NCBI GenBank assembly: GCA_040285825.1
Contig: JAUPSS010000002.1
Span: 930,001-994,000, forward strand
Source of the DNA: Eukaryota sp. TZLM1-RC
Taxonomy: Eukaryota; Protista; Metamonada: BaSk clade
Direction of reading: 5' to 3'
Length of the DNA stretch: 64,000 nucleotides
A program made the translations under genes and the position numbers. Numbering within the stretch: position 1 is the stretch's first letter; the number at the start of each line of letters is the position of its first letter. The notes below the pieces were generated by a model. The model was not told the DNA's origin. It ran no database searches and was given only the letters and a program-made list of their open reading frames with translations. Positions 9,145 to 56,934 of the stretch are shown in pieces.

Positions 9145-9473
9145 GTTTAGTAAAGAGATTTTTATCAAAAACAATAGTTAGATTTTATCGCAGAAATCAA
9201 TCAAATAGTGGATTTATAAGGTTGATTTACACAATCTTCTTTTGATTAAAATAATGAATGTTTGTGCTGTTATTCATTTCTTGATGAATGTTCTAAATGT
9301 AGTGAAGGTTCATGAATGCAAGAATTCTAGGTTAATCAATACCCAAGTGTCAAATCCAAATACATTGCAAGTAAATCTAATGTTAAATAAAATCGATGAG
9401 GACGATTTCTAGGACAGATTCAAAAGACAAAGGAAGTTAAAACTGATTCTTCACTTTCGTTTGCACGAAAATA

Positions 9474-10803: not shown

Positions 10804-10992
10804 TGTTAGTCTTTACACTATTCTAGAGTGTAGTTAGACTTATCTATATATTCTTGTATATTAGCTTAATGTTTATTGTTCTGTCATGGAGACTTCACTA
10901 GTGATGGTATTGAAATTCACTATAACTCATTTCCCGTCATAATAAATTATTCTCTCTCTGTTCATATGTCTGATTCTAGCCCACAGGCATCA
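10804..10992 (+). repeat. 5' LTR of element 1
   Basis: Direct repeat of 14280-14468. Confidence 0.95.
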
Positions 10993-12977
10993 ATGATTAT
11001 TGGCCGTTCTTCGGCTAACGAACAACAGGCTTCTCTGGATACTGCCTCACCTCTGGGTGAAACCAATCTCGGCCGTAGGGATTCCGCCTCCCATCTCGCC
11101 TACAATCCTCAAGATTCAGAGGAAGACCCTCTCACTCCTGCCAAGGATTCGTCTTCTCCTGAAGAAGCCAACGCAGACACCTCGAAAGGGGAATCTACCT
11201 CAACGGCTTCCAAGGAGTCGACAGATTCTACTGGTCAGGTTCGTCCCTCCTCTCCTTCTCCCAAGGTATCTACTTCTACTAAAACCAAATGGCAGTATAC
11301 CATGGAGAAATTCCGGAGGGATTTAGAACTATGGAACTTCCTGGATCTATACGCCTTAAAGGTAGAACTTGCTACTCGTGCTCTTAAGGACCATTTCAAG
11401 CAGTTCATGATTCAGATGTTTCTAAACGAGTCTCCTTCTCGGATTTCTTCCGTTGAAGAAGATGGAGACAACTTTAAGTTCTTGCTGATGCCCCAACCCT
11501 ATGATCCATTGACTCATCCAGATCCGGATTGTCTCATGGATTTCTATCCAATCCGTTTGGATAGAGAATCAGCAGTCGAACCTAATCCAGACCAAGTTTT
11601 CGCCGCTCGTAGTGCTGCTCGGTCAGGAGCTCTCGAGAGTATGGAACTCGTTGGAAACCCCTCCTACTCTCAGAAGCCTCCCAGCTAATCCCGAAACCAC
11701 TCCCATACCTTCTCATCAAGAGAAAGTAGCTGTTCATGGTGAGGATGCAGATGGTAACCCATGCGTCTTCTGGGTACCCAGGAGTCAAGTTCTCTTTCCT
11801 GCTCCCTCCATCCCCAAACCCCTCTTTGGAGATTTGTCCGTTTCGGATCTCGACACTTTTCCTCCCATCTTTCTCCAATCTAACGTGGTGGATTTCGACT
11901 CTCTTAACGTGCCTAAAACATCCGAGTCCACCACCAAAATCAGGGACAGCCCCTCTCGCTGTTTCGCTACAATCACTCGAAATCCCTCCAAACGCTTCTT
12001 AAATCCTTTGAGTACATCTGACCCTGAATCTTCGAATATCAATAGAATTTTTAGTTTGTCTTCTGTTTGTGCCAATAAATCAATTAATTGTCCCCAGTTG
12101 ATAGAACTCTGGTTACAGATCAATAACATAGAGGTGTTTGGTCTCATTGATAGTGGAGCATCCATATCTGTCATCGCAAGAGACCTATCCACAAAATGCA
12201 AGATGGAAGACAGCTCTGAATCTGTCAAATTCATTGGTGTTATCGGAGAACCATCAAACTCTAACGGCAATGCCAAAGGAATCCTATCCTTCAATATCGG
12301 TAGCATTGCCAAAGTTGTGCATCTCACCAAATCGTTACCAATCGTTCCAGGCAACAACATTTTAATTATAGGAATAGACATTCTATATGAACTCGGCCTC
12401 ATGAACAACGACAGGGTATACATTCATCTCGATGAGCTTCACAGAACACTAATGTTACCTGAATCTGAGTTTGACCACAGAATTTCACAGATATCTGAAG
12501 GTGTCAAAAACATTCAAAGTTCACGTAAAATGTCAGGATGTCAAATAAAGCTCGATGTGATAAGTTGGTACACACCTCGGGGGAAGACAACTACTGGGCA
12601 GACATGCTATCCAGACAGGTCCCAACGACCGATCCTGTACGCATAAACACAATCAACACTCATTCATCAGCGAGCGAGATCACCTATGAACCGTTTCACC
12701 CAATCTATTATATCAGAAACTATAATCCATCAGACGACTCTGCTCTTCCAGACTTAGACGATCTTCGGGGAACCCACAAAATCCTCATTTTAAAAGAGAA
12801 ATGTGCATCTGCAATCCCCATGTTCGATCCTTGGTTGAGTAGAATCCGTTCAGACAAAGACAAGCTGTTGCAGCTCACGAACGTTCATTTGATAACTGTT
12901 CCGTCAATCATCTTGACCTCTATGTTAACGAATCAGGCAAAATCATCATCCCGTCATCACTCATCAACGTCACGCTC

Positions 12978-14279
12978 TTGATTATACATGGTTATGTATC
13001 AGGCGATCATCCTAGTATGTCTGAGAGTTTACGCAGGCTATCCTCTAGCGACTACTACTGGCCCAGTATGACTGATGATATGAAGAAACACGTGCGTTCT
13101 TGTCCATTATGTCAGAAAACGGCACCTGTTCCCAAATCTATCATTCCATCCACCGGATCTCTCTGGACTGACAAACCCTTCGCGAGACTGAACGTGAACA
13201 CTATTGGTCCTCTTTCTCCAGATCAAGAGGCCAATAAGTACATCTTAGTTTTCGTGGACAGTTTCACTCGGTATACAATACTCGTACCCTTCAAAAAATT
13301 AAACGCAAGATTGACAGCCGACGCTTTGATTTGGAGTGTGTGTGCAATCTTCGGTATACCCTACAGCATTCACAGTGACAACGGCCCAGAATTCGCCAAC
13401 AACGTGTTTAAATCACTCTGCGAATTCTTATTTATCGATGTGACGAACGGTATTCCAAATTTCAGTCAATCAAATGGCCTAGTTGAACAACGTCATAGAG
13501 TCATATTACAAAATCTTAGGAAGCTCCTAATCGATTTTAACGCCCATGACAACTGGTCAGGATATATTCCTCACCTACAATTCTTAACGAATTCTTCTAA
13601 GAGCTCTGTCACAGGTTTCAGTCCATTCGAGCTTATGTTTGGGTCAGACGTCAGTCCCAAAGCTGATCCTTTATCAATTTTCTCCACCATCGAAAAGGCT
13701 ACCACTGAGTTCCCTTTCATTCTGGATATCCAATCTAAATTCAATCGATTGAAAGAAGGACGAAAAAAAGGAGAAATCACCCAAACATCGAAATCACCGG
13801 AGGAGAAGCCAAGCACGAGTAACCTGCTATTCGAAGTTGGATGCTTAATCCTCAAATCATCTAGTGACTCCAAATTACATGGAAATTATCTGGGCCCATA
13901 TCTGGTCATCGGCAAACCTAGTAAATCAACTTTATTAATAAAAAATTTAATCACAGGTGTCGAATCTAAGGCTAGCATTTCACAATGCAAATTATACCAT
14001 TCTGACAAGCCCACTGATGATGAGTTTTATCGCATCGTGGCCTCAGGTGATACTGAGGAACATCTTTTATTGGAAATTCTCAGCCGGGATGGTAACGAGT
14101 GTCAAGTCGTATACGCTGGAGATATACGAGGCACTGAGCCTGTCGACCGCATTAAGAACACTAAGGCCTACCAAGCCTTCCTCCAGACTAATAAGTCGCG
14201 ACCCCCTGCTAGTCAACCTGCTCGCAAACAACCTCGTAGAAGAGCCAGAGGAGATCGTCGAAAGGAGAGGAAGAAGTAG
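12978..14279 (+). CDS. Integrase of LTR element 1 with GPY module and chromodomain-like tail
   Basis: H..H..CxxC, VNTIGP (first catalytic Asp appears as Asn), HSDNGPEF, SNGLVEQRHR, YLGPYLV. Confidence 0.85.
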   Translation: MIIHGYVSGDHPSMSESLRRLSSSDYYWPSMTDDMKKHVRSCPLCQKTAPVPKSIIPSTGSLWTDKPFARLNVNTIGPLSPDQEANKYILVFVDSFTRYTILVPFKKLNARLTADALIWSVCAIFGIPYSIHSDNGPEFANNVFKSLCEFLFIDVTNGIPNFSQSNGLVEQRHRVILQNLRKLLIDFNAHDNWSGYIPHLQFLTNSSKSSVTGFSPFELMFGSDVSPKADPLSIFSTIEKATTEFPFILDIQSKFNRLKEGRKKGEITQTSKSPEEKPSTSNLLFEVGCLILKSSSDSKLHGNYLGPYLVIGKPSKSTLLIKNLITGVESKASISQCKLYHSDKPTDDEFYRIVASGDTEEHLLLEILSRDGNECQVVYAGDIRGTEPVDRIKNTKAYQAFLQTNKSRPPASQPARKQPRRRARGDRRKERKK

Positions 14280-14468
14280 TGTTAGTCTTTACACTATTCT
14301 AGAGTGTAGTTAGACTTATCTATATATTCTTGTATATTAGTTTAATGTTTATTGTTCTGTCATGGAGACTTCACTAGTGATGGTATTGAAATTCACTATA
14401 GTTCATTTCCCGTCGTAATAAATTATTCTCTCTCTGTTCATATGTCTGATTCTAGCCCACAGGCATCA
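14280..14468 (+). repeat. 3' LTR of element 1
   Basis: Direct repeat of 10804-10992, preceded by a PPT. Confidence 0.95.
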
Positions 14469-35470: not shown

Positions 35471-35544
35471 GCTAACAAATACAAATTGTAACAAATACTT
35501 ATAAGAACTTGTGGCGAATTCAGCAACTTTAGTTTATTTTTTGA

Positions 35545-35809
35545 ACTATGTGGTTATCAAACTCCGGTAGAAGGCGGAATTTTTTTAGATGCTTTCCAAA
35601 AATTTGGTTCAACAAAATACAATGAAGAGATTTGATGCCTTTTTCTGGAGGTCACGAATTTAATTTGCTATAATTTAAAGACTATCTCGGTTCTTTCATA
35701 AAAAAGTGAAGCAAAGGCGAGAAAACAAGCAGATTGGGATTTTGTAGAGAAAATCTTGGTTCAATGATTTTAGTCTCATTAGCTCTGATTTAATTTTGTT
35801 AAGTGTTGT
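35545..35809 (+). mobile_element. Degraded 3' fragment of CRE-like family A; its tail is interrupted by LTR element 3
   Basis: Aligns with about 10100-10355 (...AAATCTTGGTTCAATGAT...TTAAGTGT); the tail appears to resume after 52365 (AGTTCAATTAAAT). Confidence 0.75.
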
Positions 35810-35888
35810 TGTTGGCGCCCTAAGGCTTATATAATATGAATAGAAAATAAATCAGACTTCTCTTTACTACAATAGACTTTAGGCAACA
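35810..35888 (+). repeat. 5' LTR of element 3 (79 bp)
   Basis: Direct repeat of 52283-52361; TGTTG...CAACA ends. Confidence 0.93.
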
Positions 35889-38800
35889 GTAATTATTGGT
35901 CATATTAAAGTCAAGGTATACCGCTCATAACCCCAGTACTTTACTAGTAAACAGCTTCCAGAGACCTTTACAGCATATCAGACATCTTTCAGCAAGATAT
36001 CTTTGACCCCAATTCCTCACCTAACATGCAGCAACAGGAACCAGCAACATACACACATACACATAACGAAGTGGGTAACGAGGTAACGGACCCGGCTTTC
36101 TCTCCCCTCAAAAGAAAAGATGAAACAGACGAGGCAACGAGAATGGACCCGGCTCCCTCTCCCCTCCCAAATGTAGAACCTGTCTCAAAGGGAACGGATG
36201 GAAATTTCACCTTAGACACGTCTTCCCCACAAGGAGAGTATGAAGAAATACAATCTCAACTAGATGAAATGGAGGGAGAAGATTACTCTTCCGAGAAGTT
36301 CTATAAGCTATTAAGAGAGGATGCAAATAGCTTACCTCGAACATACAGATTTTTGTCTGTTCGAGCAGCTTCCTCCTCTGTGGAGCTATACTCCTAAAAG
36401 AGGCAAAAACGTTGGTTTCCAGACCCTCGGTATGGTTGGGGATACTCAAAAGGTATTACAAATTCCCCTCAACGAAAGGAATGAGCTCATCAAAGCTCTT
36501 GATAAATTGAGCGGAGAGACCTTCAGGGCGTAACGCAGAGCGACGTCCCAGGATCTCTGGCATGGACAAAAGAATTACCAAGATGATGTCCATTTCCATC
36601 AAAGATAGATTGGATTGGAAGGTCTCCTTCCTTGACCAATATGGCAGAAGAATAAGGTTTTTCTCCATCGAGCTGAGAAGTAGGGCCGATTCAGAAGACA
36701 TCCTGCAATCCAAATTGCCTGCCTGGTTTGATCCTAACTTTAATACGGAAATTCATAACTACACGGAGCTAACAGAGGGCGCTCCCACATATTTTAGGGA
36801 ATTCATGGAGCAGGAGGACAGTAGTGAACAGGACAAGCTTGAACCAGTAACACCCTGGTTCGACGCAGACGCTCTGAACAACATTCATACGGATCGATCA
36901 GCTGTATCCACGTATAGGAGCTATCCTAACAACTACATTCAGCAACATGGTAACTCGTTCACGAAACAACGAGATTTTAGACAATGGGTAATGGGAGATC
37001 CATCCACATCTCTCCACCTTCCCAAATTGCCTGTTGTGGCTCCTATGATTTCCGAAAAAAGCCAACCAATACAGGTCTGCTCTATCGACAGCATACCCGA
37101 ACACGGTCCAACAGTGAACGTTCCGGAACCTGTAGCAAGACAAGACGTTACACCTCAGGAAGAACCAACTTCCACTCAACCCATGGAAAGTGAAATTGGA
37201 GATGACATAGAGTTGAACGGGCCAGTCGTTGGAGAAACGGCTCCTCCTCAACACTTAGTAAGAAACTTTTCTTCCGATAGACCCCTGCATATTGAGGACC
37301 TGCAATCCTCAAGAAGCGCTATTGACATGAGCATAGCTAGTAGCCTTCATAGACAGATTGACCCACGGTTTAAGGATATCGACTATAAAAAACCTCGATT
37401 ATCCGCTGATGACCCTATCTATAAGATGTCTATCATAGCTTTTCTTTTAAAATTATCAAACTTGGGATAAATACGGGCGAAAGATAGCTAATAGAAGCTT
37501 TGAAGCCCCAGGTCAATCCGACTAGACCAGAGCCTTCATGATAGCTACCCAGCATTTTGGAGAAGGCCAAGCAGAGATAACCCAAGATAGGATTAAAGAT
37601 CTTTCCGAACATATACGCGACGAGATCACTAGGGACACAACACAGCCTTTGGTAAGGATTGACCTAGCTATAACAGATAAGCTCGGACCACCAATGCACC
37701 ATTATGATTCATTTAGGAGCATGATGATGAGCACTTGCCCTACAGGAATATCTAGCATGAGCGACCCTAGCCTTCTATCTAGATGGCAGAGTCAAGGCTT
37801 ACTCGGTATTGACTATACCGACGCTGACGTCATGGTATTTCGGCTTAAAAGAACGCAATTCACATCATATCATGAAGCATGTACAGCTCTAATGAAGCCT
37901 AGAATTAACTGGAGGAAAATCCACAATAGACATGATGCTGACAACGAGTTTGGTCGTTATGTAGAAGATTTTGGAGACGTCTTAAGAATGACCACCTACA
38001 AGACCGACCTGACCATTCCTTTTTTGATTAGAGGAAGCAGTGGGCTGATAACCATATCTCCCGCTCTAATAGCCGAATACTCCCTTATGGGTTTGGACAA
38101 CTTTGCAATATCAAGCGAACTCCTCCCAGTATGGACTAAGGAATTTGTGTGGAATTCGCTTATCAGAACAACTCTACTCGATTTAATATAGACAACTAGA
38201 AGGCACTTCCTTGCTTGGTGATTCACAGCACGAAACAAGCCCACTATGGACATACTAATGAACAGGGCCAACGAAGAAGATATTTTTTTGGGACTCACGG
38301 CGATGAGAACTTATTCAAGAGGGATAACCCCATCAGCCCAGGCTCCAGTAAAACGAGCAAGACGATCAGGTGGAAAATCGAGAGCAACCCCTCAACACAA
38401 GTACATTCCTGAAAAGCATGAACGAGAAGGTTCGAAGTTTTGTACATTCTGCAGTAACGTCGAAGGTGACAACCCTGTCGGCCACACTGTATTTGAATGT
38501 AAAGACCCTCGTTGTGCTAGAAGCAGAGTACCCAAAGAAGAAAGATTCAGATTGGGAGAACAGGAGACGCCTGATAGTAGAGGCAGTGTAGAAAGGGGCT
38601 GAGCTGGCCGAGGTAGACGTGTACATAGATTTAAATTTAGAGGCCGTGGAGGCCGTTTTAGAGGACATAAAGGAAGAGGTCAGTATAGACCTTTATATAA
38701 CACCAACACAACAGAGGACATATCATCAAACGCATCCTTCACTGAGACAAAACCGACCCGTTCAAGTACGGTTCCTCACAAACGAATCAACAACAGCAAG

Positions 38801-39907
38801 CGGAACAGCAAGACAGGCAACTTTCCTCATCGGGTACATATCAATGCAATCAATTAAAATCAATCAACAACCGATTTAGGAAACCCGGTCAACAACTTTC
38901 CAACAGCTCAACAAAATCTTTTCATTCCTCCACAAATTCACCAAACCAGCTCTGATATCAATAGTATTTTTGATATTAATTCTACGGTTAGTGAAAACCA
39001 CATCAGATCCCAGCGTTCTCCATTTCTAAGACTGGAGATATCAATAAACGATATCAAAATGATTGCAACTATTGATTCGGCTGCGTTTTGTTCAGTTATT
39101 ACTGCAGACTTAGCTGAACAATGCCATATGTCAATCAATAGCAAAGATACTATTCAGTTTTTACCAGCTAATAATGTATCTACAAAATCGCTTGGGAGTG
39201 CAACTGGTATTCTGTCGTTTAACGTAGGAAGCATTGCGCAACGAATTCACTATAAACATACTCTTTCCATAATCCAGGGTTCGAACAAATTACTAATAGG
39301 GACCGACATGTTAAAAGCACTTGGGCTTCAGACGAATGATGGTCTTTTCATTAGATTAGACAAAGAACACCGCACTTTGTTAAATGCAGAATCAGAATTC
39401 GACTCTAGAATCGCTCAACATTCGATTGGGAACTTAGATAACCAATCACCAAGTCGTTCTGATTTTGAGGAGCAATTAACAAGATATGGATGTGAGATAA
39501 AATTAGATGATAGTAATAATAAATTACAATTAACGAGTCTACTTGAAATTTTCAGCGATGTTTTTAGTGAAACTCCAAACAAAAAAGGTATTAATTGTAG
39601 TCCTCTTACAATCTTCTTTCGCGATGAAAACGTTATTGTATGCAAACCTGCTAGACGGTTAAACCCAAGCAAATTAGAAATGGCCAACAAAATATTCGAC
39701 GATTTGACAGAAATGGGTTATGCAGTTGAATCCAATTATAGATTCAGCTCTCCTATTGTCCTAGTTATCTACCCAGATGATAGAAAACCTAGATTAACTG
39801 GTGACTTTAGTGGTAAAGATGGTGGTAATGCCCATGCAATTTCTGTCGAACCTAATTTACCGCGGATTAGTGACATATTAGAATTTTTAAGTAGAGCTGA
39901 CTACATT

Positions 39908-42900
39908 TGTTGGGTTTCGTGCACAAGTAAATAGCATTACAAACGGAGACAGATGTTTATCAATGCAACAAGGAAAATCAAAGATAAAATTACAACAATC
40001 TAAATATAGCAGTGACACGTCATCACTTAAACTACTATGGCTAAGAGCCAACACTACCTCTTCTTTCTTTTTCCACGGGTTTTCTTCTTAGGAACATCTT
40101 CAATGAGCAGCATAAAACGTTTGTAGGCAGCAGTATTCTTGATTGAGTCTACAGGTTGTACAGTACTGGTTCCATCTGACCAGATTATAGTAGCATCGTT
40201 GTTTTCGATAGAATCGATGGCATCTATGACATGTTCCCCTTTATCAGCGGCGACGTAAGAATCAAGAATTTCTTTAGGCAGGGAGGAAGTACAAGGTTTA
40301 ACTAAGTGGATTGAGGTTTTAAGCAAGTTCTTAGTAATAGGATTCTTCACTAGGATCGAAGAGTTGGTAAGTTGTTTTTCAACAACATAAGGTCCTACAA
40401 AATGGCCATGAAGCTTGGCTGGTTTGTCTCGAAGAACAAACACACGATCACCAGGTTGAAGCTTACAGGTTAAAGGAGCACTAGGTTCAATGGCAATAGA
40501 ATCCAGATCTATTTTATTCCAAGAGTCGGTAAGGGTTTGAGTCAAGGAAGTAAGATGAGCAAGGTAATCAGGAAGGTCAGGTTGGTTAGCAGGAGGTTTG
40601 AGGGATTCAAGCATCTCATGAGGAAGAAGTCGAGGGGAAGTATTAGTTCCAAAGAGTAAGAAATAAGGAGAGGTTCCAAGAGATTTCCTAGGGTGAGAAT
40701 TTACAATAAGCTGGCAGATTGGTATATAATCTGACCAGTTCTGGTAGTCAGCGAAATCAAGTAACAGTTTTCTCAGGGCTTGGAGGACAGTACGATGTTG
40801 TCTTTCGACAAGTCCATTAGATTGATGAAAGTGAGGAATGGACAAGGTGTGTTCAATATTCAAGAATTGACAGAGTAGAGAAAAGACCTTATTAGAGAAT
40901 TCAGGTCCATTATCGGAATGGATCGAACGAGGAGCTCCAAAGACGGAGTAGACGTGAACAAGGATAGAATTTACCACAGTAAGAGCGGTAACATCGGCAA
41001 CTGGGACAAGAATTGAAAATTTGGAAAAGGCGTCTACGAAGTGGATAACATATTTGTTACCATAGGAGTCAACAGACAGAGGACCAATAGTATCACAATG
41101 TAGATACTCGAAAGGGCGTTTAGCGGAGTTAAGAGAACCTGTAGTGGGAATAGAGTTCTTAAGAATTGGAGAAATTTTCTGGCAGGGAATACATCCAGCG
41201 ATATGAGAGAATAGATCGGCTTTCATGTTAGGCCAGTGGAAGTCGGAATCTTTTAGTTTCTTCCAGGCAATATCTATGGGTGGATGGCCAGATTCTACTG
41301 AACCATGAGTCAGTAGTAGGATCTCGGGACGGAGAGATGGAGGGATCAAAATCTTAGGCTGAGAGGAATTTAGCATTTTTAATCCACTACTTCTGTGAAT
41401 GTAGGAGTCAGCGAATAGAGAATCAGAATCGGACAACTTCTGTTGTTCTTTAAAAATCTTACTTAGGAACTTTGAACTAGGAGATGGGTTTTGGTTAGAT
41501 AGCAGCGACTCAGAGGATTCGGACTGTTGAGACTCAGAAGTTTCGGCAACTATACAGAAGGCAGTTTCCATGTCGACGTCGGAAGAGCTGGATATCTCAA
41601 TGATTTCTTCAGCAGTTCTAGGGTCACAAGGAGGAGGTGAGGAATCTGATTGTCCAGATTGGCTTCTAAGGAATTGTCGATGGTTGACAAGTTCAGGGAA
41701 CCATCGTTTTAGTGAGTCAAAACGAGAGAGGGCAGGTTCAATAACAAAGAAGGGATGAAGAAATTTTCTTCCTTCGCTATCGTGGTAGACAAAACCGCTA
41801 TAACTTCCGGTTCTAGTAACTGGAAGAATTCTTTCGTAGATCAAGAAATCTTGGCGAGAAGGACGAGGGCGAGGAGTACCTATAATAAGCGGTTCAATGT
41901 CATCGATATGGCAACAGTACTGAGTTGGGTGAAAGGATTCGGCTAGTAATGGTTCAGAAGTTGAAAGGTCAGCTAAAGCGTAGCTGATTCGAATTGAGTG
42001 AGACCCAGGATCAATTTGATCAGACCAAATGGTTTCGAAGCAAGGAATAGGGAAGTCACAAGGGGCCATTTCGTCATCGGCAAAATGGTGGATATACCAT
42101 ATACAGGGTTTGAGGAGACACAAAGGTATAAAGGTGGTAATATCTCGAGAGGGATCGAGCAAGTAAGGTCGGTGGCGGATATGATCAGAGAGGACTCGGG
42201 TGTTTTCATATCCATTCCAGTTTGAGTGATCACGACTAATCCTGTTCGGATCGAGGGCAGGAGTTCCACAGGTAGAGTACAAGGGAGTGGAGTTGTGCAA
42301 GGCCCAGTGATAGAGTTGTTCGTCTAAGACAGTGATAGGGAGGTCTAGCGTGGGAATGCTGGGGATATCATGAGGATATTCGTCGTTGGTGTCAGTCTTA
42401 GTAGCACGGGTATGGAGATCTAGAAGACTGAGACGATGAGGGTGAGGAAGTTTCCAGCAGGCAGAAATATATTTTGAACGGTCAGGGTCAATTAAGAAGT
42501 CTTCAAATCGACGAGAGATAAATCGGTTATGATCGATGTTGAAAGGATACATATGTGTAGGCAAAGGTAGGAGATGAAAGATATTAAGGTGATAATATAA
42601 ATCGTCCAAGGAGACTGAGGAGCAGAGGCGATTCAATCTGATTATTAGTGCATTAGCGGGAATGGTATCAGGATGATAATTCAGAGAAGGAATTTTAGGA
42701 TGGTGGAAGTAAAGTTTCAAGTTCAAATTGCCATGTTGGATCAGGTCATTAAGATTATGAGTTGAAGAGTCAACAAATTCACGGACATGCATTCTGGGTA
42801 AGTCAGTTGAGAGGATAAAGAAAAAGGCCATACAGTTACGATCAATGAGGTCTCTGTGGACGGAGTTAGTTATTGGTTCAAAATGAGAAAAGTGTTTTAA

Positions 42901-45900
42901 GGCGTTAATCTCGGCGAAGGCGGATTTGGGATGTCTTGAAGCAGAAGGGTGAATTACTTTGGCAGCGTCTTCATATGAGAGGTTATACCAGGTTATCGGA
43001 TCTAAATCTAACTCGGCTAAGTTAAGGTAGTTGAACAGACTAGAAAAGGAGTTTCCATGAACAGAGTTAGGGCGGAGCAGTGAGCAGCATTTTTCGACAG
43101 CATTTTTAGTACGAGCAGTACTATTTTTGGTCTTTCTTTCTTTTCTTCCGGGGGTTTTCTTAGGAGAATCTAGGTTAGTACGAGATAAGTAATCAGCCCA
43201 AAAATTCTTGGGGCCTTCGATATGTACTATGTCGAATTCGAAAGATTGAAGGACTGGAATCCAGCGTAAAACTACGCGATTTTCGTCAGGGCAAGACAAA
43301 AGATAAGATAGATTTTGATAGTCGCAAAATATTGTGAGATGTTTAGTCATCAGGAAGGAGGAAAGGTTAGGTTGGTTCAAGGTCATCACTATGACAAAAA
43401 GTTCCTTTTGCATAGTGGACCAGTTCCGTTGGGAGGCGGTTAAGATCCGGGAATAAAATGATACGGGAGCTACCTTGCGTTTGGATAGGCAAGTTCCTGG
43501 TGGTGAAGGTTCAAGTTCCTTCCAAATGATGCCGGCGATGGCTTTGTCAGAGGCATCTGTTGAGATCAGGATTGTAGAATTGGCGTCTGGTAAGGCGAGA
43601 GGGGTACTGTTAATTAGCATGGTTTTAATATTTTCAAAGCATTTGATTTCTTTTTCACCGAGTTTGATCTTCTTCGGTTTCTTTTGTAAGAGAGCGGTAA
43701 GGGGAGCAAGTTCAGCACTGACAGAAGGTAGCCAGTCGCGAATAAAGTTAATCGAACCTACGAAAGAACGTAGTTCGGGAACAGAGGTTGGAGGAGAAAG
43801 CTTGCTTAAGGTTTCGATTCTAGAAGGACATATTTTTCGAGTTCCATTCTCGAAAATGGTTCCTAAAACTTTGATGGGGTGGTCTTTAGTTTGAAAGGCG
43901 CATTTGTGGAGTCCTATGCGCACACGGTACTTTTGAGCTAATGCGAAGAGTTTGTCGAGGCTAGCAAGAAATTCAGGTTTGGAGTTAGCGGCAAGGATTA
44001 AGTCATCCATGTAGATAAATATTCCATCTAAGTTGAATATCCTTTTCATCAGATTTTGAAAGATCGCAGGGACATTCTTAAGTCCAAAGGAGGCGCGAGT
44101 GAACATCACTTTTCTTCCAGGTATTGAGATAGCGGTCTTTGGCTGATCGTCGGGGTGAAGGTTAAGTTGCCAAAAGGCTTTGGGTAAATGCAAGGTAGCA
44201 ATGTAAGTTGCGTTTGAAAGAAATCTACAAACATCAGAGATTCTAGGGAGATCAGCGGGTATAGGTACGGTTTTGGCATTGATTCCGTCTGAGCCAGAGT
44301 AATCGCCAGTGAGTCTGGGTGGTTTTCCTGGAGCTTGTACCAAACAGATGGGAGAAGAGAAAGGTCCATCGTAAGGGACGGCGAATCCATGTTCAATAAG
44401 TAAGTCAATCTGTTCGTTAGCGATGCGAAGCTTGTCGGGAGGCAAGTAGCGGGCTTTCTTCGAGACTATTTCAGATTCGTCATAGAACTCAATAGTCATT
44501 GGAGGGCAATCAATTCCACGGGAGTCAGGAAGTTTAGAAAAGATTTGAGGGCAATCAATTCCACGGGAGTCAGGAAGTTTAGAAAAGATTTGAGGATACT
44601 TTAGAAGGAGGTCTTTAATATTTTGAGTTAGAGTCGAGTCGTCTAGTAAGAATTTAGCCTTGTCAAGGTCAGGCAGGGTTACAGCAGTGGATACAGTTAA
44701 AGCAGGAGGCATGAATTGGTCGGGTACAGCGTTTTCGTCTTGAATAGATAAGTTTCTTTCTGTTAAGTTTATGAATAGGTAATTGTTGGTAAGTAATCCA
44801 AGTGATTTCAAAAGATCACAACCTATTAAGCAGGAATTAGGGCAATCAAGGACAGCTAAAGTAGTAGAGACATAAGTTAGTTTGGCAGTTCCACCAAGAG
44901 CAAAAGCAAGGGTTCCGGAGACTAGCTGGCATTCCACTGAGTTGTTATCAGCTAGGTTGAGTTTTAGAGAACTTCCAGTTGGTTTCAATCGAGCTACCTT
45001 TACAAGGTCTCGGGATATACAGGATATTGTTGCACCAGTATCGATCATTCCATAAATGATCTGGTCTTTTCCAGCGAAGATTCGTAAGTGTAAAAGTTTT
45101 CGGTCCATGGGTTTATTTAGTTCTTTCAGAGGAATGGTTATCTTAGGATTAGGAATAACAACAGAGGCGTGAGAAGGGTCAGAAGGAAGGTAGGGATTTG
45201 TAGATGTTGAAGGAACTTTATCATCGTGATGATTTAGATTACTTCTCTTAGTAACAGAGTTTCCAAGCTCAGTTACTCCACCGTCGTGCCGAGCACAGTC
45301 AGCGTACACCGGTTCCAAATCAGAGTCGAGGTCGGGATTAGCTTCCAGCGACAAGGATTTGTTGGATGAACCAGGAGCTTTTCCTAGCGGTACCAGAGAG
45401 GATGTATCTGTTCTAAGAGTAGTTGGTCTAAATTCATCAGATATAGAAGCTTCCTTAGCAACACGAGATAAGGGTGTAGAAACAAAGGACGAAGAAGAAT
45501 TAAGACGAGATGGTTTTGCAGGAGATTCAGAAACAGAAGAAGGATAAGAAGGGCAGGTAATGAGATCTAAGTTCTCAAAAAGGTTAGCGAATTCAAAGCA
45601 GTCCGAGTCAGAGAAATGTTTTAGGGATAAAGGAGATGAGGGAGATGCGGAAGAATAGTCGGAAGAATTATCGGAGTTTATTAAAGGATTCAAGATTACA
45701 TTATAGGAAGTTTCAGATTCCGAACTAGATGGAGAGTGAGTTACATAAATAGGGAGATAGGTATGATCAATGTCATGATCTTCTTTAATTCCATCCTGGA
45801 TAGAAGAAATGATGGAATTAAGTTGGGGATTACGTTTTCGAGTAGGAATCTCTCTTTTTCCTACTGGTTCACGAGGGTTAGGGTAGTGAGGCTGGGAGTT

Positions 45901-47243
45901 AGATTTGTGTTGTTGAGAAACACGGCAGCTGAGATCAGGACAATCCTTGATCATATGACCAGGCTGTTTACAGAAGCGACAGACGACGTCTTGAGAAGAT
46001 TTGGAGGCAGACTTAATAGGTGTTTTTGAAGAAGTGGAAGGAGTTCGGGGATTACGAGGAGTTCTGAAAGAGGGATTACGGTTATGCTTGGGATGAGACT
46101 GATTGGAGTGTCGTCGGGAAGAGAAACGAGAAGAAGGACGAGAGTGATAATTTTGTTGGTCAATATTGCGAGGACCAGGTGCAGAAGAACGCTTGTTGAA
46201 GGAGTAGAATTCTGAGTAAGGTAAATGGTGTCTAGGTAAAAGTTCTTTAAGGCGAGAGATCAGTTCCGGTAGGTCTTGGATGTCTTCATTACGCATATCA
46301 TGTTTCAAAATGCGTTTCACAGCGTCAGGACGAATACCATTAATAAAGAAGTGGAGTTTAGATTTGGAGTCAGTAAAAGAAGGAGCTAGGCGAAGGATTT
46401 TCAGAAAGGCAGTAGTGTAAGCAGCTATAGCATCAGAGGCGGAGGACGAGTTCAGGTTTAGACGAAGGCGCTCAAGTTGAAGGTAGACTTCTGAGGTGTC
46501 TTCAACCTCACAACAGGAAATAAGGTAGCGAGCAATGGAGTCAGGGTCATTGGGATCCACGTTCTCCATAACCATAAAGGTTTCGAGGACTTCTGGAGAA
46601 ATAGTATGAGGTAAATGTGGGGAGATGAGAGCGGCCAAGTCATCATAATCAAGAGAAGAGAAGGAACGGAGACCAGTGAAATTGTTAATGTTGGTCTTGG
46701 AACTAACAGATTCAGTGGGAAAAGCTTGAAGTTCAGCAGTGGCTTCTTCATCTTCTTTATCGAAAAGCAGGTTATAATGGACTTGCTCAGGGTCATCTTC
46801 CTCTAGAGCAGAGGTCTGAGGTACAGTTGTTGAAGGGTTAGCGTGAGACCGGATGCTTACGCTTCTACGGTCGTCAGCTTGAGACTTGCACTGGTCAGTA
46901 GGGATTTCAGCTTTTTCAGCTTCGGCGGAACGAGGACGGGAACGGGAACTGGAATGGGGACGGGAACTAGCATGGGAAGCCATGCGGACAGCATAGACCC
47001 TAAGCTCCTCAACAAACCGGGAGACAGCTTCTCGACCGGAGGCACGGAGGAAGGGAGCAACTAGGGTTAGATGATCCTTGGGATCCACAGTAATTACTGT
47101 TGGGTTTCGTGCACAAGTAAATAGCATTACAAACGGAGACAGATGTTTATCAATGCAACAAGGAAAATCAAAGATAAAATTACCACAATCTAAATATAGC
47201 AGTGACACGTAATCACTTAAACTACTATGGCTAAGAGCCAACA
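39908..47243 (-). mobile_element. LTR retrotransposon 4, full length and young, nested antisense in the RT of element 3
   Basis: 146-bp LTRs at 39908-40053 and 47098-47243 (2 differences); perfect TSD CATT; PPT GGAAAAAGAAAGAAGAGGTAG; single ORF. Confidence 0.97.
40054..47127 (-). CDS. Gag-Pol polyprotein (2357 aa from the first ATG): gag-CCHC, protease, RT, RNase H, unknown insert, integrase, chromodomain-like tail
   Basis: CRFCKQPGHMIKDC; MIDTGAT; LHLPKAFWQ...FGLKNVP...YMDD; STDASD...KEL...WADYLSR; H..H..CxxC, CDTIGP, SDNGPEF, GLVER; GPYVV. Confidence 0.93.
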   Translation of the reverse strand: MLFTCARNPTVITVDPKDHLTLVAPFLRASGREAVSRFVEELRVYAVRMASHASSRPHSSSRSRPRSAEAEKAEIPTDQCKSQADDRRSVSIRSHANPSTTVPQTSALEEDDPEQVHYNLLFDKEDEEATAELQAFPTESVSSKTNINNFTGLRSFSSLDYDDLAALISPHLPHTISPEVLETFMVMENVDPNDPDSIARYLISCCEVEDTSEVYLQLERLRLNLNSSSASDAIAAYTTAFLKILRLAPSFTDSKSKLHFFINGIRPDAVKRILKHDMRNEDIQDLPELISRLKELLPRHHLPYSEFYSFNKRSSAPGPRNIDQQNYHSRPSSRFSSRRHSNQSHPKHNRNPSFRTPRNPRTPSTSSKTPIKSASKSSQDVVCRFCKQPGHMIKDCPDLSCRVSQQHKSNSQPHYPNPREPVGKREIPTRKRNPQLNSIISSIQDGIKEDHDIDHTYLPIYVTHSPSSSESETSYNVILNPLINSDNSSDYSSASPSSPLSLKHFSDSDCFEFANLFENLDLITCPSYPSSVSESPAKPSRLNSSSSFVSTPLSRVAKEASISDEFRPTTLRTDTSSLVPLGKAPGSSNKSLSLEANPDLDSDLEPVYADCARHDGGVTELGNSVTKRSNLNHHDDKVPSTSTNPYLPSDPSHASVVIPNPKITIPLKELNKPMDRKLLHLRIFAGKDQIIYGMIDTGATISCISRDLVKVARLKPTGSSLKLNLADNNSVECQLVSGTLAFALGGTAKLTYVSTTLAVLDCPNSCLIGCDLLKSLGLLTNNYLFINLTERNLSIQDENAVPDQFMPPALTVSTAVTLPDLDKAKFLLDDSTLTQNIKDLLLKYPQIFSKLPDSRGIDCPQIFSKLPDSRGIDCPPMTIEFYDESEIVSKKARYLPPDKLRIANEQIDLLIEHGFAVPYDGPFSSPICLVQAPGKPPRLTGDYSGSDGINAKTVPIPADLPRISDVCRFLSNATYIATLHLPKAFWQLNLHPDDQPKTAISIPGRKVMFTRASFGLKNVPAIFQNLMKRIFNLDGIFIYMDDLILAANSKPEFLASLDKLFALAQKYRVRIGLHKCAFQTKDHPIKVLGTIFENGTRKICPSRIETLSKLSPPTSVPELRSFVGSINFIRDWLPSVSAELAPLTALLQKKPKKIKLGEKEIKCFENIKTMLINSTPLALPDANSTILISTDASDKAIAGIIWKELEPSPPGTCLSKRKVAPVSFYSRILTASQRNWSTMQKELFVIVMTLNQPNLSSFLMTKHLTIFCDYQNLSYLLSCPDENRVVLRWIPVLQSFEFDIVHIEGPKNFWADYLSRTNLDSPKKTPGRKERKTKNSTARTKNAVEKCCSLLRPNSVHGNSFSSLFNYLNLAELDLDPITWYNLSYEDAAKVIHPSASRHPKSAFAEINALKHFSHFEPITNSVHRDLIDRNCMAFFFILSTDLPRMHVREFVDSSTHNLNDLIQHGNLNLKLYFHHPKIPSLNYHPDTIPANALIIRLNRLCSSVSLDDLYYHLNIFHLLPLPTHMYPFNIDHNRFISRRFEDFLIDPDRSKYISACWKLPHPHRLSLLDLHTRATKTDTNDEYPHDIPSIPTLDLPITVLDEQLYHWALHNSTPLYSTCGTPALDPNRISRDHSNWNGYENTRVLSDHIRHRPYLLDPSRDITTFIPLCLLKPCIWYIHHFADDEMAPCDFPIPCFETIWSDQIDPGSHSIRISYALADLSTSEPLLAESFHPTQYCCHIDDIEPLIIGTPRPRPSRQDFLIYERILPVTRTGSYSGFVYHDSEGRKFLHPFFVIEPALSRFDSLKRWFPELVNHRQFLRSQSGQSDSSPPPCDPRTAEEIIEISSSSDVDMETAFCIVAETSESQQSESSESLLSNQNPSPSSKFLSKIFKEQQKLSDSDSLFADSYIHRSSGLKMLNSSQPKILIPPSLRPEILLLTHGSVESGHPPIDIAWKKLKDSDFHWPNMKADLFSHIAGCIPCQKISPILKNSIPTTGSLNSAKRPFEYLHCDTIGPLSVDSYGNKYVIHFVDAFSKFSILVPVADVTALTVVNSILVHVYSVFGAPRSIHSDNGPEFSNKVFSLLCQFLNIEHTLSIPHFHQSNGLVERQHRTVLQALRKLLLDFADYQNWSDYIPICQLIVNSHPRKSLGTSPYFLLFGTNTSPRLLPHEMLESLKPPANQPDLPDYLAHLTSLTQTLTDSWNKIDLDSIAIEPSAPLTCKLQPGDRVFVLRDKPAKLHGHFVGPYVVEKQLTNSSILVKNPITKNLLKTSIHLVKPCTSSLPKEILDSYVAADKGEHVIDAIDSIENNDATIIWSDGTSTVQPVDSIKNTAAYKRFMLLIEDVPKKKTRGKRKKR

Positions 47244-48314
47244 CATTGCCACACTTGATTTACCAAAACCTTTCTGGCAAATGAACGTAGCAGAAAAAGA
47301 TATCAAAAAACATCATTTTCAATACCTGTGAGGTCCGTCATGTTCAAAAGAGTTTGCTTTGGTTTAAAGAATATCCCAGTAGTATTTCAAAATGTAATGA
47401 TGGAAATTTTCCAAATAGACGGCGTTTTCATATACATAGACGACATCATAATAGTCGGTACTTCATTTGATGAATTCTACAGACGACTACAAAGAGTGCT
47501 CGAATGCGCCAGGAAAAGACGGGTAAACATTGGTTTACGAAAATGCAAATTCGTCACAGCCAAACACCCCATTGACATATTAGGAAGCACCTTCCAGAAC
47601 AAAACTAGGTTTATCAGCAAGAAAAGATTGAAGCCCTTATGAAAATACCCAGACCAAAAACAGTGAAAGAGGTTCACTCCTTGGTTGGATCAATCACTTA
47701 CATAAGAGATTGGCTTCCTGGAATTTCTGAATTAATAGCTCCAATCAACGAGTCAATAAAAGGAAAACCTAGAATTATCAAATGGACCAATGAGCATGAA
47801 GATTAGCTTAAAGAAATCAAAGATTTAATTGTAAACCACATGCCCGTTGAATTACCAGCTTCGGGGAAGCGAGTATTAATAAGTACTGACGCTTCAAATG
47901 TAACAGTAGGAGACGTAATTTGGCAAGAAATTGAACCCTACTCCCCTGTAGGAAACCCGCTAAATGAAAGGAAAATGAAACCTTTGTCATTCTATAGTAG
48001 ACTACTTACAAAGAAAATGGTCCACTTTACAGAAAGAACTATATGCAATACTTTTGATTTTAACTGAAAGTTGTTTAGAAAGCTACCTATTGACTAGACA
48101 TTTAACAATTTTCACTAATCACAAAAACATTGCATTCCTGGCCACAGCTTCAGAGAAAAATAGAATTGTAAAGAGATGGCTGCCGATACTATCTGAATTC
48201 GACTTTGATATAGTCCATAAACCTGGTGAAGATAACCATTGGGCAGATATGCTATCGAGGAATATTGATTTGGATCAAAACGAGGAAACTCCTTCTATTT
48301 GTAGTATAAATATA

Positions 48315-49500
48315 CCAGATACTAACAAATCTAAACAAATCTTCTACAAAATTAGTTTCATTGTCGTTAATCTGTCCGGTTTCATTCGAATCTCTATCAT
48401 GACAGTTCAATAGCCCAACTTTCCTCCAACAATTGGAAATACATTCTCTGGTCACCATAGACCAACTAGAGGAGATAATGGGGAGAACGTCAACGATGCC
48501 TATACGTTTTTGGGCTTCGTCCTGTGTGACTCTTTCAGTAACAATAATTGGCAATATTTTTCTTAGAAAATGTTTTGAATAAAAGCGCTTAAACACTGCA
48601 ATAATTCCAGCATCGAGTGGTTGGATGTGTGAAGTGGCATTCTTTAACAAAAACTCAGTCCTCACATTAGACAAATTTTCAGTTAAAATGTGAGATGGGG
48701 CATTATCAATGAGCAACAGAATTTGTCTTCCATTTGCTCTCATTTTTTCATTCAGTTTCTTACAGTAATCGGTAAAAATTGATGAAGTCATCCAAGCCTT
48801 TTTGTTAGCATACCACAATAAGTTCAGTGAATTGGCAGTGTTTGGTTTCATACCGCGAGGCTTTTGAGACTTGTTGATGATACCGAGAGGCATTTTCTCT
48901 GACCCATCTGCATTTACACAAAAAACCAGAGTGATTCTTTGCTTAGAATCACGCTTAGAAAGATTCGAACCAGCCATCACCGTGTTGTAACTGGTCGCTT
49001 TTTGGAATATCCAGGACTTCATAAAGCTTTTCTGCCTCTGTTAGAATAACATCTTCAGTGATTGTCATGAGAGCTGAGTTTGACTCAACAAACAGTGCAA
49101 GAGCAGCATCAAGGTCACGGTGTTTTACAGAACGAACTCTCTTTGCAGATGGTCTCAAATTTTTGCCCAGGGCAAGAGCTTGCTCAAGAACTTGTGAACG
49201 TCGCTTCAAAATCTTTCCAATAGTTGTACGATGGGGTTTTGAGGGCAAGTTGAAAGTCTCTTTAGCCCAGGATGCCAAAGCAGTATTCTTTAGATGAGGA
49301 TTTTCGTCAGCATATTGGATGAGGAGTGCTGACTGTTTGACACCTATCTCTACTGGTTTCGGTTTTGGTGGTTGTGACATGAAAAAGAGAGAAGTTATAA
49401 AGCGAGAAGTTACAATTATAAATGACTAAGGGAACCAGAAAAAACGAGAATTTATAGAGAGTGAGAAGTTATATAGCGAGAAGTTATAGAGAGGTTACTG
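48315..49500 (-). mobile_element. pogo/Tigger-type DNA transposon remnant (CENP-B HTH + DDE_1), internally deleted and one-ended
   Basis: Terminus CAGTAACCTCTC (minus strand) next to TA at 49501-49502; subterminal GAGAAGTTATA repeats; GWFESF joined directly to SKQRIT..CVNADGSEK; LLLIDNAPSH; QPLDAGII. The left boundary is approximate. Confidence 0.88.
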
Positions 49501-50204
49501 TACTTTACTTTCGAATTACGAGATACCTCCACTAGACGATGATTTTGATTCGAACTTTGAAGATATCCCATCAATTTCATCTTTAAGTAGACACCAAGAC
49601 TTACCTATTTTTTCTTCTTGGTTCTCTAAAATAAGATCTGAACAACAAATAGCCAAAAACAACAATGACTCTTTATTTGAAAATGCAATTCTAGATGAAA
49701 ATACTCAAATTTGGAAAAATAATAAAAATCAAATTTTAATTCCAAAGAGCCTTAGAAAACAGGCACTATTATTAATACATGGTTTAGTTCAATCTGGTTA
49801 CCCCAGCAAAAACGATAGTTTACAAAAACTATCCAAAAGTGACTTCTACTGGCATAATATGAGAAAGGACCTCATAAATCATGTAAAAAGTTGCTCAACT
49901 TGTCAAAAAACAGCTCCAGTTAATAGGTCAAAAACACCTTCCACAGGATCTCTATGGGCAGATCATCCATTTGCCAGATTAAACGTCGATACAATTGGAC
50001 CTCTGAACACTGACAACGAAGGAAATAAATATATATTAGTATTTGTAGACTCTTTTACTGGATATACAAATTTGGTCCCTCTGAACGAACTCAATGCCTT
50101 AGAAACCGCAGATGCTTTGATTTGCAACGTTTGCGCAATTTTTGACATACATATGTTAATTCATAGCGATAATGGGCCTGAGTTCGCCAATGAGACTTTC
50201 AAAA

Positions 50205-51597
50205 TAGTTGTTTTTAAATTATGACATTTATTTTCAACGCTAACAAAACATTAAACAAAAAACTAGAACTCAATATCCTCAATACACGCATCAACATCAT
50301 CAAATTTTTTATACGCGCGATTTTCATACTCTATTCCTAATTGTAACAGTGCTTTGGTCAACATTTCTGGAATTGCTTTAAGAATACTAAAAACAATTCT
50401 ATTGTGCCTTTGCTCTTTTCAGCAAAGCAAAGTGGAGTTTCATCCTTTTTAGCAAAATCAATTGCTGAGTCTTTACAAACATCAACAGTGACAACATCAA
50501 CAACATTGATCACACCATCAGACCCAGGGGTAATTAAATCAGCACGGCGTTTCCCAAAAGTATTTTCATCTTCATTTTCAGATGACAACCTTCGCACAAG
50601 TGGTTCAACAAAATCTTCAATGTGATGACTTTTGCACATAGCGTATAGTTAATCTCTAACAGCATCGTGAACAACTGAGCGATATGTAATATTAAATTTG
50701 CAATTAAATAAATGATTCAGATTGATGAGCTGACACAACGACAAATCAAATCATTTGACACACTACATGGCCACAGAAAACACTTCATCCTGAAGGCAGT
50801 TGTCCATTGATGATCAATTAATAATAAGCCATATACATTTGGAATCTGGGAAATGAGACAACTTGAGCTACTTTCCTTAAGATCAATTAGAAAGTTTGCA
50901 AAAACGGGATTTTTTTCTTTAGCCAAGCTAAGACGAACAGTGAAATCCAAGTTTTCAAAAACTTTTAATATCTTTTTTCTGCAATTTAGTGTATGCAAAT
51001 TTCAAGGAAATCAAACTGTTGGGTGGAATTTCTTGAAAATCAGCAGGAAAGCATTTGGACCATATGTGAGGAGAGATTCATTCAATTTCATTCTGCAAAG
51101 ATACTAAATAGTCACTAACACAATATTCTATTAAATGTTGGTTTTCAGGAAAACGTTTCAAAAATTCAAAGACGAAATTTTTGCCTCTACCGATAAATGC
51201 AGCTTTACACAAATATTCAGATTTGTGAAAATCCAAGCCTCAAAATTCTGTGCTGCAAAAAATATGACTGCGTAAATAAGAACAATCAATGTCAAGCAAA
51301 TTAGCCAAAAACTTTGTTCTTAATTCATTGAAAATTCTGCAAAATTCAAGAGAGAGAGATGGTGATGTTGATCGTAGGATATGAGTAAATTTCCCTGAAT
51401 AACAAATTCTGAGGAAGAAAAATTTAAGATGTTTTTCAATATTTAAATCTGAAAGAACAATCAATTCCTCTTCAAAATTATCCAAAAGAGAGGAAAGTTG
51501 ATTTCGAATTTCATCAAAATTGCCTAGATAACAACCTAAAAAACGAAATCCTGATTCAAAATAATTGATAAAAGGAACACTTTGACCATCAATAATG
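50205..51597 (-). mobile_element. RLE-type (CRE-like) non-LTR element, 5'-truncated and degraded, nested in the integrase of element 3
   Basis: RT-end GFRFLGCYLG, HILRS, RRADL...VVDVVTVD...AEKSK; the host integrase stops at FANETFK and resumes at REAERHQ...FNIGDYV. Confidence 0.85.
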
Positions 51598-52282
51598 AGA
51601 AGAAGCAGAGCGTCACCAAACATTTAATACTGCGTCTTCAGTAGATAATACTAATTCGTGTTTTATATTATTTAATATTGGTGACTACGTCTTCCGTAAA
51701 ACCAAGCAAAATAATAAATTGCATGGATCTTGGAATGGACCATTCTTAGTTATTGACCTTCCTTCCAAATCCACTTTATTATTGAAGAATCTTACTACTG
51801 GCACAGAATTAAAAGCTGCCAAGAAAGATTGTAAGATCTATAACGCAGAAAATCCACAGGACATTGAGTTCCTCAAGGCAGTCGCAGCAGGCGATGCCGA
51901 AAAACACGTTATAGAGAAAATCCTCTGAGAATACCACTCTGATTCAGGTAGTTTCTGTTCTGTTCAATGGTTTGGCGGTGAGACAACAGAAGAGCCTCTC
52001 CATTCGGTTAAACATTCAGAAGCTTATAAGTTATTTAGTAAGGAAAACAAGAATATTAGAAAACGTACCACTAGTCGACGTCAAGGTACCTCCAATGAGT
52101 CTACGCCTTCTAAGAGGCCTAGACGTAGTTATAGATTAGGAAGCGGAGCTAATTCTTGGTTTATATCGATTACTTATTTTATATCGATTTTTTATATATT
52201 TATTTATAGTTATTTCGTTACTTGTTTATAGTTTAGTTCATATTCATATAAGCTGATTTATTTTGAAGAAGACAAGAAGCAG

Positions 52283-52361
52283 TGTTGGCGCCCTAAGGCT
52301 TTTATAATATGAATAGAAAGTAAATCAGACTTCTCTTTACTACAATAGACTTTAGGCAACA
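52283..52361 (+). repeat. 3' LTR of element 3
   Basis: Direct repeat of 35810-35888, followed by TSD TTGT. Confidence 0.93.
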
Positions 52362-53178
52362 TTGTAGTTCAATTAAATTTACACAACTTCGGCTTGTCTA
52401 ATTCACAACTATGTTTTACATTTATGATATTTGGAACACTAAAAAAATGCAGGCTGATATACACAAGTAAAAGACTGAAAGTTTGTTATTAATAAGTCTT
52501 GTTCAACATTTCAACAACCTAAAATACACTTTAATTCACCTCTGCAACCCTTTTTAATGGGTGATTATTAAAAAACTATTTAAACAAATTGAAACATCTT
52601 AGACCAGAATTTATATTCAATTTCTAAATAAATTGTGAATTTGATATATTGAATTAAATATAAAAAAATATTAAATATAAACATATTGAATATTTGTTAA
52701 CAATGACAAATGAAGCTTTGACTTGATCAAAATGCCCTGTTAGATCTGCAAATGTTGGCACAATTTTGAGGGAAAACACAATAAGAAAAGGAATATCACA
52801 CCAACACTTGTCATGAAATATAAGCTTGTGATAGTGGAAATTGCCTAGTTAAAACCTGGTCCCTGGAACGCTTCTGGTCATGTTCCATAGTAGTGCTCAC
52901 TAATTGGTAGTGTTGAACTATAATATATATATATAATAATATATAATATTAGAGATGGTAGTATTATAGGTGATTTAAATCGGAACTAAAAGTGCTAATA
53001 CTCACCACATAACTAATAGTTCCAAAATAAAATATTATCGATTCATCTTTTATTATAGTGTTCGTGCAAGTGTTGGTGAAAGAAGTGGTGTGGTGAAAGA
53101 GGATTTTATAATTATGTGGACAATACAAAAATCATCCTGTTTTTCAAAATCTTGACCACTTACACCACACTACCTCAA

Positions 53179-56485: not shown

Positions 56486-56934
56486 GAGGAACCAGTAATT
56501 TCTGGTAATTTTCACATTAATTTTCTTTAGTGTGGTGGTTCAGCTTAAGCGTGATGTCTATTAGTGTTGAACAGGTGGCATAATGATAAAGAGCTCATCA
56601 ATAAATTGTTGATCAATTGCAAATAAACTTAAATGTACTTACTTAATATATTACTGAACTTACATTTACTTACTTAATATAAATATATATTAACATTCTA
56701 GCATTAATACAAAGAAGATGAAACCAGCTAGTTCCATTGCACAACAAACTGACATTGAGATAACATCTTTTCGGGAAAAATTCTATGTTTGTTATCAATT
56801 TCATTAAGAAACAATTTAGAGGGCAGTGTCATCTTTAAAGTGCATATTATCTTTTGGGTCATATACGATGGACTCTATGTGGGGTAGGACTGACAGTTGT
56901 TGGAGAATGTTGATGAATTGTTACGGTAGGAATG

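Follow-up and report, generated by a model that had tools for sequence, protein, structure and literature searches.

How can a retrotransposon with long terminal repeats (LTRs) begin reverse transcription when its 5′ LTR is not followed by a primer-binding site (PBS) for a tRNA? The question is raised by a 64,000-nt stretch of Eukaryota sp. TZLM1-RC DNA (contig JAUPSS010000002.1, positions 930,001 to 994,000; hereafter the window), in which three LTR elements, here called E1, E3 and E4, have a recognisable 5′ LTR. An earlier note on this DNA had claimed that no TGG of a tRNA PBS lies 0–4 nt past any of these LTRs and that each junction carries a self-complementary motif in its place. Testing 0–5 nt past the LTR, we found the first TGG at +9 in E1 and E3 and at +11 in E4, which has TGT at +9; an unrelated locus (L001), the positive control, has TGG shortly after its LTR. 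The sequences and coordinates reported for the three junctions were also correct, as were the LTR lengths of 146 bp (E4), 79 bp (E3) and 189 bp (E1).

The three junctions have a common form, a self-pairing CA-N8-TG 12-mer that starts at the last CA of the LTR. In E4, the 5′ LTR runs from 47243 to 47098 and is followed by GTAATTACTGT; the junction reads CA followed by GTAATTATTG in E3, and CA followed by ATGATTATTG in E1. As claimed, all three 12-mers stay self-paired if G-U pairs are allowed, E4 perfectly and E1 and E3 with one G-U pair type each. Fully self-pairing 12-mers that start with CA are rare in the window under the same rule (12/8,664 on both strands, the junctions included among the 12), and the three 3′ LTR ends, taken as controls, pair at only 3/6, 1/6 and 3/6 positions. 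Since E1, E3 and E4 are related, they are not three independent draws, and the cube of the background rate would overstate the case. The LTRs themselves are unalignable to one another, as had been said, with mutual alignment limited to words of 7–11 nt. The junction palindrome is a real feature of these elements.

The most similar proteins are those of Eukaryota sp. TZLM1-RC (64–74% identity in reverse transcriptase (RT) for the top four), TZLM3-RCL and GEM-RC1. The latter two are skoliomonad metamonads with genomes that are 28–55% repetitive (PMC11316075), and the host of E1, E3 and E4 is probably a flagellate of skoliomonad type. The accessible text of PMC11316075 does not discuss LTR elements, and “retrotransposon” has 0 occurrences. 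The gag ATG lies inside the LTR in E1 (27 nt from its edge) and in E4 (30 nt), so the protein reads through the site, which the E4 open reading frame (ORF) crosses as T-V-I-T-V. We therefore scanned 104 skoliomonad proteins for every peptide that could be translated, in any frame, from a perfect CA-N8-TG palindrome. Thirteen of 21 apparently full-length N-terminal families had a compatible peptide within residues 2–16, against a background of 347/7,732 stretches. Eleven of these 13 fell in the narrower class CA-N-TA-NN-TA-N-TG (background 34/7,732), and the other two are probably chance matches. Seven of 18 families matched in a second set of 157 proteins, where one match is chance and three repeat families of the first set. 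The peptides were TVITG/V, TVRTG/V, SIRIG, TIIIG and SLING and, in a second reading frame, NNNYC, which was present in 6/7 members in the first set and 2/3 in the second. Positions +2, +3, +6 and +7 (TA..TA) are nearly fixed among the relatives. Four close relatives of E1 read T-I-I-I-G/D; because their T-I-I-I fits a perfect palindrome, the wobble in E1 is probably decay. Two candidates were set aside: the PDISD match of the E3 family, whose protein start aligns about 87 nt downstream of the junction in the window, and NNTYC (1/7) as a compensated variant, since a single base change suffices to give it.

Twenty distant relatives had no compatible N-terminal peptide, a result that says nothing should their gag start downstream. 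Viral contigs yielded no relatives (0/26 and 0/35 pattern matches), nor did prokaryote genomes (0/117). Relatives in metagenome contigs (10/135) were all distant (23–37% identity), and none of these 10 has the palindrome motif at its LTR-like repeats.

Within the matching families, the outer pair appears to change in step. Residues 2 and 4 combine V with T, I or M with I, and L with N, as expected for G-C, A-U and U-A outer pairs (permutation P = 0.00075 for 13 hand-listed families; 144/5,040 for the 7 distinct tripeptides). Between these two stands I or R; a self-paired centre would permit four residues there, of which these are two. On a quick RT-RNase H tree, the central pair changes at least four times and the outer pair at least three times. 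In DNA from one sample (contigs of runs X1 and X2), the letters of the E3 12-mer are kept while the flanking positions 35900 and 35904 differ, and position 6 of the 12-mer is changed to a G-U-compatible base in one contig of depth 8. All DNA departures from a perfect palindrome (3/3; E1, E3 and one X2 contig) are of G-U types. Taken from the inferred codons of the relatives and the three DNA variants, it is apparently self-complementarity rather than the letters that is conserved. The site occurs in two reading frames and, in E3, outside coding sequence, so protein constraint does not explain the palindrome.

What would the palindrome pair with? The computed energies are −9.6 to −14.2 kcal/mol for a dimer of two RNAs, against −1.1 kcal/mol (E4) or zero (E1, E3) for a hairpin. 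These energies, together with changes at the central pairs, which would lie unpaired in a hairpin loop, argue for pairing between two RNAs. We propose, with a probability of roughly 55%, that the palindrome pairs two packaged genomic RNAs and that one of them, nicked by RNase H, primes minus-strand DNA on the other. The site starts at the last CA of the LTR in the DNA, with no TGG at 0–4 nt, and two packaged genomes could pair head to head through the 12-mer, so that +8 of one strand would face +1 of the other. By analogy with the retrotransposon Tf1, an RNase H cut is predicted 6–8 nt past the LTR, which would place a 3′-OH within 0–2 nt of the partner’s U5 edge, and this 3′-OH would prime minus-strand DNA on the partner RNA. 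The cut would have to spare one strand, since the second strand transfer needs a template on which the site is intact. Plus-strand copying of the primer would regenerate the site, the palindrome being its own complement, and the remaining steps would be ordinary, each element having a polypurine tract, TG...CA ends and 4-bp target duplications. The RNase H region of E4 contains four acidic residues that we take to be the usual catalytic set. In Tf1 the primer arises when RNase H cuts an RNA duplex (PMC7175516), a precedent that makes the enzyme plausible for the nick; moreover, Ty3 and Ty1 RNAs dimerise via 5′ palindromes (PMC11381356).

Several observations weigh against dimer priming. Known palindromic dimer sites exist beside a PBS and do not prime, and an 8-bp AU-rich duplex is a weak hold for a primer. 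The E4 5′ LTR contains a 9-nt complement of the site. No match was found in 8/21 and 11/18 families, some of which visibly start downstream. The misses include a large GEM-RC1 family, and for the P0006/P0088 family a late start is no excuse. The matches LNLNC, TSRDE and PDISD are probably chance, and single copies deviate from the pattern (SIRSG, SSING, NINYC). The relatives’ codons are inferred from protein, junction DNA covering the E3 family in one sample. The permutation set was chosen from the matches and includes the three window elements, with E1 scored as compatible despite its wobble. The counts of changes on the tree are rough, as the families are related, their 5′ ends can recombine away from pol and the tree is a quick one. 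Finally, the mirror (A-C) copies that G-U families should yield if the plus strand copied such a primer were absent from the few E3 contigs, although contigs drop rare variants.

The covariation fits equally well if the palindrome serves dimerisation or packaging alone and priming takes another route, through a protein primer, a split or distant tRNA site or the 3′ end of the RNA itself. Ty3, Ty1 and HIV-1 all have palindromic dimer sites, and the PBS of Ty3 is split (PMC11381356). We consider this unlikely, with perhaps one chance in a handful, given the fixed register on the last CA of the LTR in E1, E3 and E4 and also in the fungal GalEa elements (below). The place of the PBS must moreover hold the 3′ end of the primer, and a dimer there would presumably block any other primer.

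Priming by a host RNA has a small chance of being right; the RNA might be one non-tRNA primer common to all, a tRNA fragment particular to each family, or a tRNA bound at a displaced site, the TGG at +9. The earlier note had offered one shared primer as its second option, and a single 10-mer can indeed pair with the three window sites at −6.2 to −8.7 kcal/mol; with three inferred variants, however, the 10-mer reaches only −1.6 to −3.9 kcal/mol. At +1, +5 and +8, regardless of codons, no single base pairs with every inferred state, which makes one shared primer unlikely and tells against that option if the peptides mark the same site. A displaced tRNA site would use the TGG found at +9 in E1 and E3; E4 departs from it there, and with A, H, P, S, L, R or Q as the residue next to the motif, no conserved sequence continues beyond the TGG. 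Half-tRNA-primed elements include Ty5, copia, Osser and Bianca. Such priming is established in Copia lineages (PMC6317226, PMC10886601), and the accessible text of PMC10886601 has no occurrence of “palindrom” or “self-prim”. Rfam and ARAGORN gave no match and no tRNA gene within the window. An 11-nt stretch downstream of E3, which resembles the anticodon arm of initiator tRNA, was rejected as it is not kept in X1/X2.

A slightly smaller chance attaches to plain Tf1 self-priming, in which the LTR-encoded first 9–11 nt of the transcript anneal to the site and, once cleaved off, act as primer. The closest outside relatives, P0014 and P0018, have chromodomains, as do Tf1/sushi elements. The earlier note saw no convincing complement inside the LTRs. 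This held for E1 and E3, where complements are at chance level (62/500 and 339/500 shuffles as good), and overlooked the 9-nt complement in the E4 5′ LTR, matched in only 2/500 shuffles. That complement has one difference in the 3′ LTR copy (72/500 shuffles as good), would leave a U3 of 25 nt and falls below the 10 nt asked of Tf1/sushi elements in PMC6317226, a length that none of E1, E3 and E4 reaches. The Tf1 model, furthermore, does not need a palindrome.

Less probable again is that the site is a symmetric double-stranded DNA target of a dimeric protein, or a by-product of coding constraint on the Gag N-terminus. The nearly fixed TA..TA positions and the location within gag in many families fit such a reading; the two reading frames plus a non-coding case, the interchange of I and R, and the G-U nature of all three DNA departures, which matters to RNA only, do not. 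The fold-back of the 12-mer within one RNA, priming after cleavage, is the least probable reading: a 4-bp stem is possible in E4, yet its energy is −1.1 kcal/mol or none, and its loop gives no reason for matched central-pair changes. In the first option of the earlier note, a fold-back or genome-dimer duplex, the energies thus do not support the fold-back half, and the apparently matched I versus R changes favour the dimer half.

The coordinates of the elements are collected in the table. The 3′ copies fix the LTR ends, the 5′ and 3′ LTRs being 97.5–98.6% identical in E1, E3 and E4.

Features of elements E1, E3 and E4 (positions are those of the window)
Element	Feature	Position	Strand	Remarks
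E4	Junction palindrome	47087..47100	-	perfect, 14 nt: last ACA of 5′ LTR plus PBS position; 12-nt core 47088–47099
E4	5′ LTR	47098..47243	-	146 bp, TG...CA; in-frame ATG at 47127, 30 nt upstream of LTR end
E4	LTR complement of site	47210..47218	-	9 nt, LTR positions 26–34, one G-U; one difference in 3′ LTR copy
E4	Single gag-pol ORF	40054..47127	-	zinc knuckle, protease, RT, RNase H, about 560 aa unmatched, integrase
E4	Polypurine tract	40054..40074	-	ends in TAG, abuts 3′ LTR
E4	3′ LTR	39908..40053	-	target duplication AATG; inserted in E3 RT region
E3	5′ LTR	35810..35888	+	79 bp
E3	Self-pairing 12-mer	35887..35898	+	one G-U pair type; non-coding in E3 family
E3	Polypurine tract	52265..52282	+	
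E3	3′ LTR	52283..52361	+	target duplication TTGT
E1	5′ LTR	10804..10992	+	189 bp; gag ATG at 10966, 27 nt upstream of LTR end
E1	Self-pairing 12-mer	10991..11002	+	one G-U pair type; reads S-M-I-I-G
E1	Polypurine tract	14260..14279	+	ends in TAG
E1	3′ LTR	14280..14468	+	

By sequence, E1, E3 and E4 are Ty3/gypsy elements. They have TG...CA ends, a polypurine tract and 4-bp target duplications (AATG in E4, TTGT in E3, and TAAG/CAAG with one mismatch in E1), and E4 has the Gypsy order of protease, RT, RNase H and integrase between direct LTRs, with Ty3 Gag-Pol/RT as its best match of solved structure (E 1e-41). Contigs of runs X1 and X2 bridge the E4 site, joining 39897 to 47243, and so confirm the E4 borders. 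The last three bases of each polypurine tract, abutting the 3′ LTR, are TAG or CAG (14277–14279, 40054–40056, 52280–52282), and the TAG doubles as the stop codon of pol in E1 and E4. Pfam gave no chromodomain match in the last 102 aa of E4, in P0147 or in P0009, and did so in the outside relatives P0014 and P0018; by eye, the E4 C-terminus (40057–40362, minus strand) looks like a worn chromodomain. The region of about 560 aa between RNase H and integrase (41470–43149, minus strand) has no Pfam or usable Atlas match, and the C-terminal part of P0111 aligns across it at 37%.

The E4 ORF is open over 2,357 codons, yet its first RT aspartate motif reads LHL where relatives have LDL, and a 45-nt tandem duplication lies at 44498–44587; E4 may be inactive on both counts. 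The alignment of E1 with P0154 skips from residue 534 to 996 at 12556–12578, most of RT and RNase H being lost, and E1 is classed on this alignment as a non-autonomous deletion copy. E3 (35810–52361) is a nested, decayed copy with E4 in its RT region, a DDE_1 transposase at 48252–49040 and an integrase interrupted by another stretch at about 50203–51599; X1/X2 contigs join across both E4 and the DDE_1 insertion. A fourth Gypsy fragment (33590–35493, minus strand; up to 72% identity to P0095) has lost its 5′ end beside a repeat at 35580–35806 and so offers no junction. That repeat is a partial third copy of a 903-bp repeat present in two inverted copies (96%; 9473–10375 and 26210–27110). Elsewhere in the window, two short repeats (27919–27991 and 52703–52775) encode a C-x2-C motif that recalls a TnpB/Fanzor zinc ribbon, and a RIB43A gene (55337–56539, minus strand) stands amid long uninterrupted ORFs, which fits a flagellated host with few introns.

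A plant-element survey lists three primer types for LTR elements (PMC6317226). Whether dimer priming should join whole tRNA, half tRNA and Tf1 self-priming as a fourth route to LTR reverse transcription strikes us as evenly balanced. If it should, the two packaged genomes would pair via a palindrome whose centre lies 4 nt beyond the LTR, and cutting of one would provide the primer for the other, which would couple genome dimerisation to initiation without host RNA, so that the retroelement would need no host primer. Family-specific palindromes would then limit recombination between families, and LTR annotation based on the PBS would miss whole clades. Groups that lack both a PBS and a mechanism include GalEa, Skipper and Tcn2-5.

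Several known systems share part of this arrangement. Ty3 (PAL6), Ty1 and HIV-1 dimer sites are also short palindromes near the 5′ end of the genomic RNA that can pair two copies (PMC11381356), but they are about 6 nt long and sit in loops away from the LTR edge, beside a tRNA PBS, whereas the present site is 12 nt long and occupies the PBS position. Dictyostelid Skipper (PMC5006619) and the bivalve TRIMs (PMC6934838) likewise have no tRNA PBS and no Tf1-type complement, and unusual priming is a proposal for both. Skipper differs by a polypyrimidine stretch, and the bivalve TRIMs by spaced inverted repeats and no coding capacity. Tf1/sushi elements also dispense with tRNA; their RNase H attacks a duplex of the element’s RNA and so releases the primer, the step proposed here by analogy. 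Their primer is the first 11 nt of the transcript, with its complement in the LTR (PMC7175516, bioRxiv 10.1101/2022.12.06.519325, PMC6317226, PMC11042837), and the Tf1 PBS is not palindromic (PMC5445492); in contrast, E1, E3 and E4 have no consistent LTR complement, and their site is its own complement.

The closest likeness in arrangement is to the fungal Ty1/Copia elements of the GalEa group, which have no PBS; instead, a palindrome takes in the last A of the 5′ LTR and continues straight after it (PMC5445492). The register is the same, with A at −1 pairing with T at +9, and with T at +2 and A at +7. The earlier note had called such a priming mode possibly undescribed. A palindrome in place of the PBS and in this register is already in print for GalEa; the mechanism is not, the accessible text of PMC5445492 giving none. 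Our literature search, to which subscription papers such as the Tcn2-5 description were out of scope, returned no palindromic PBS replacement in Gypsy and no dimer-priming mechanism. In GalEa the palindrome is joined by a hairpin partner further downstream; the Conserved Hairpin Site (CHS) has the parts CHSeq1 and CHSeq2, and Donnart et al. (2017) found no model to fit it (PMC5445492). The downstream CHSeq2 partner, an inverse complement with an A/A mismatch, was sought in E1, E3 and E4, and the best candidates had 4, 4 and 5 mismatches of 9 (3, 2 and 2 with wobble); five GalEa families likewise list no CHSeq2 (PMC5445492). With CHSeq2 absent and the elements Gypsy, the present site is, as judged from its sequence, not a member of the CHS, although it may work like one. 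It also differs in occurring in Ty3/gypsy elements of a metamonad-like protist, with integrase after RNase H, in including the C of CA (12 bp) and in its letters, in often lying inside gag, and, unlike GalEa, in outer and central pairs that apparently change in step. If dimer priming is correct, Gypsy and Copia lineages would both have acquired it, in one and the same register, and the GalEa site would be explained; natural variants that change in matched pairs are ready-made mutant and rescue designs, and so make the GalEa question testable.

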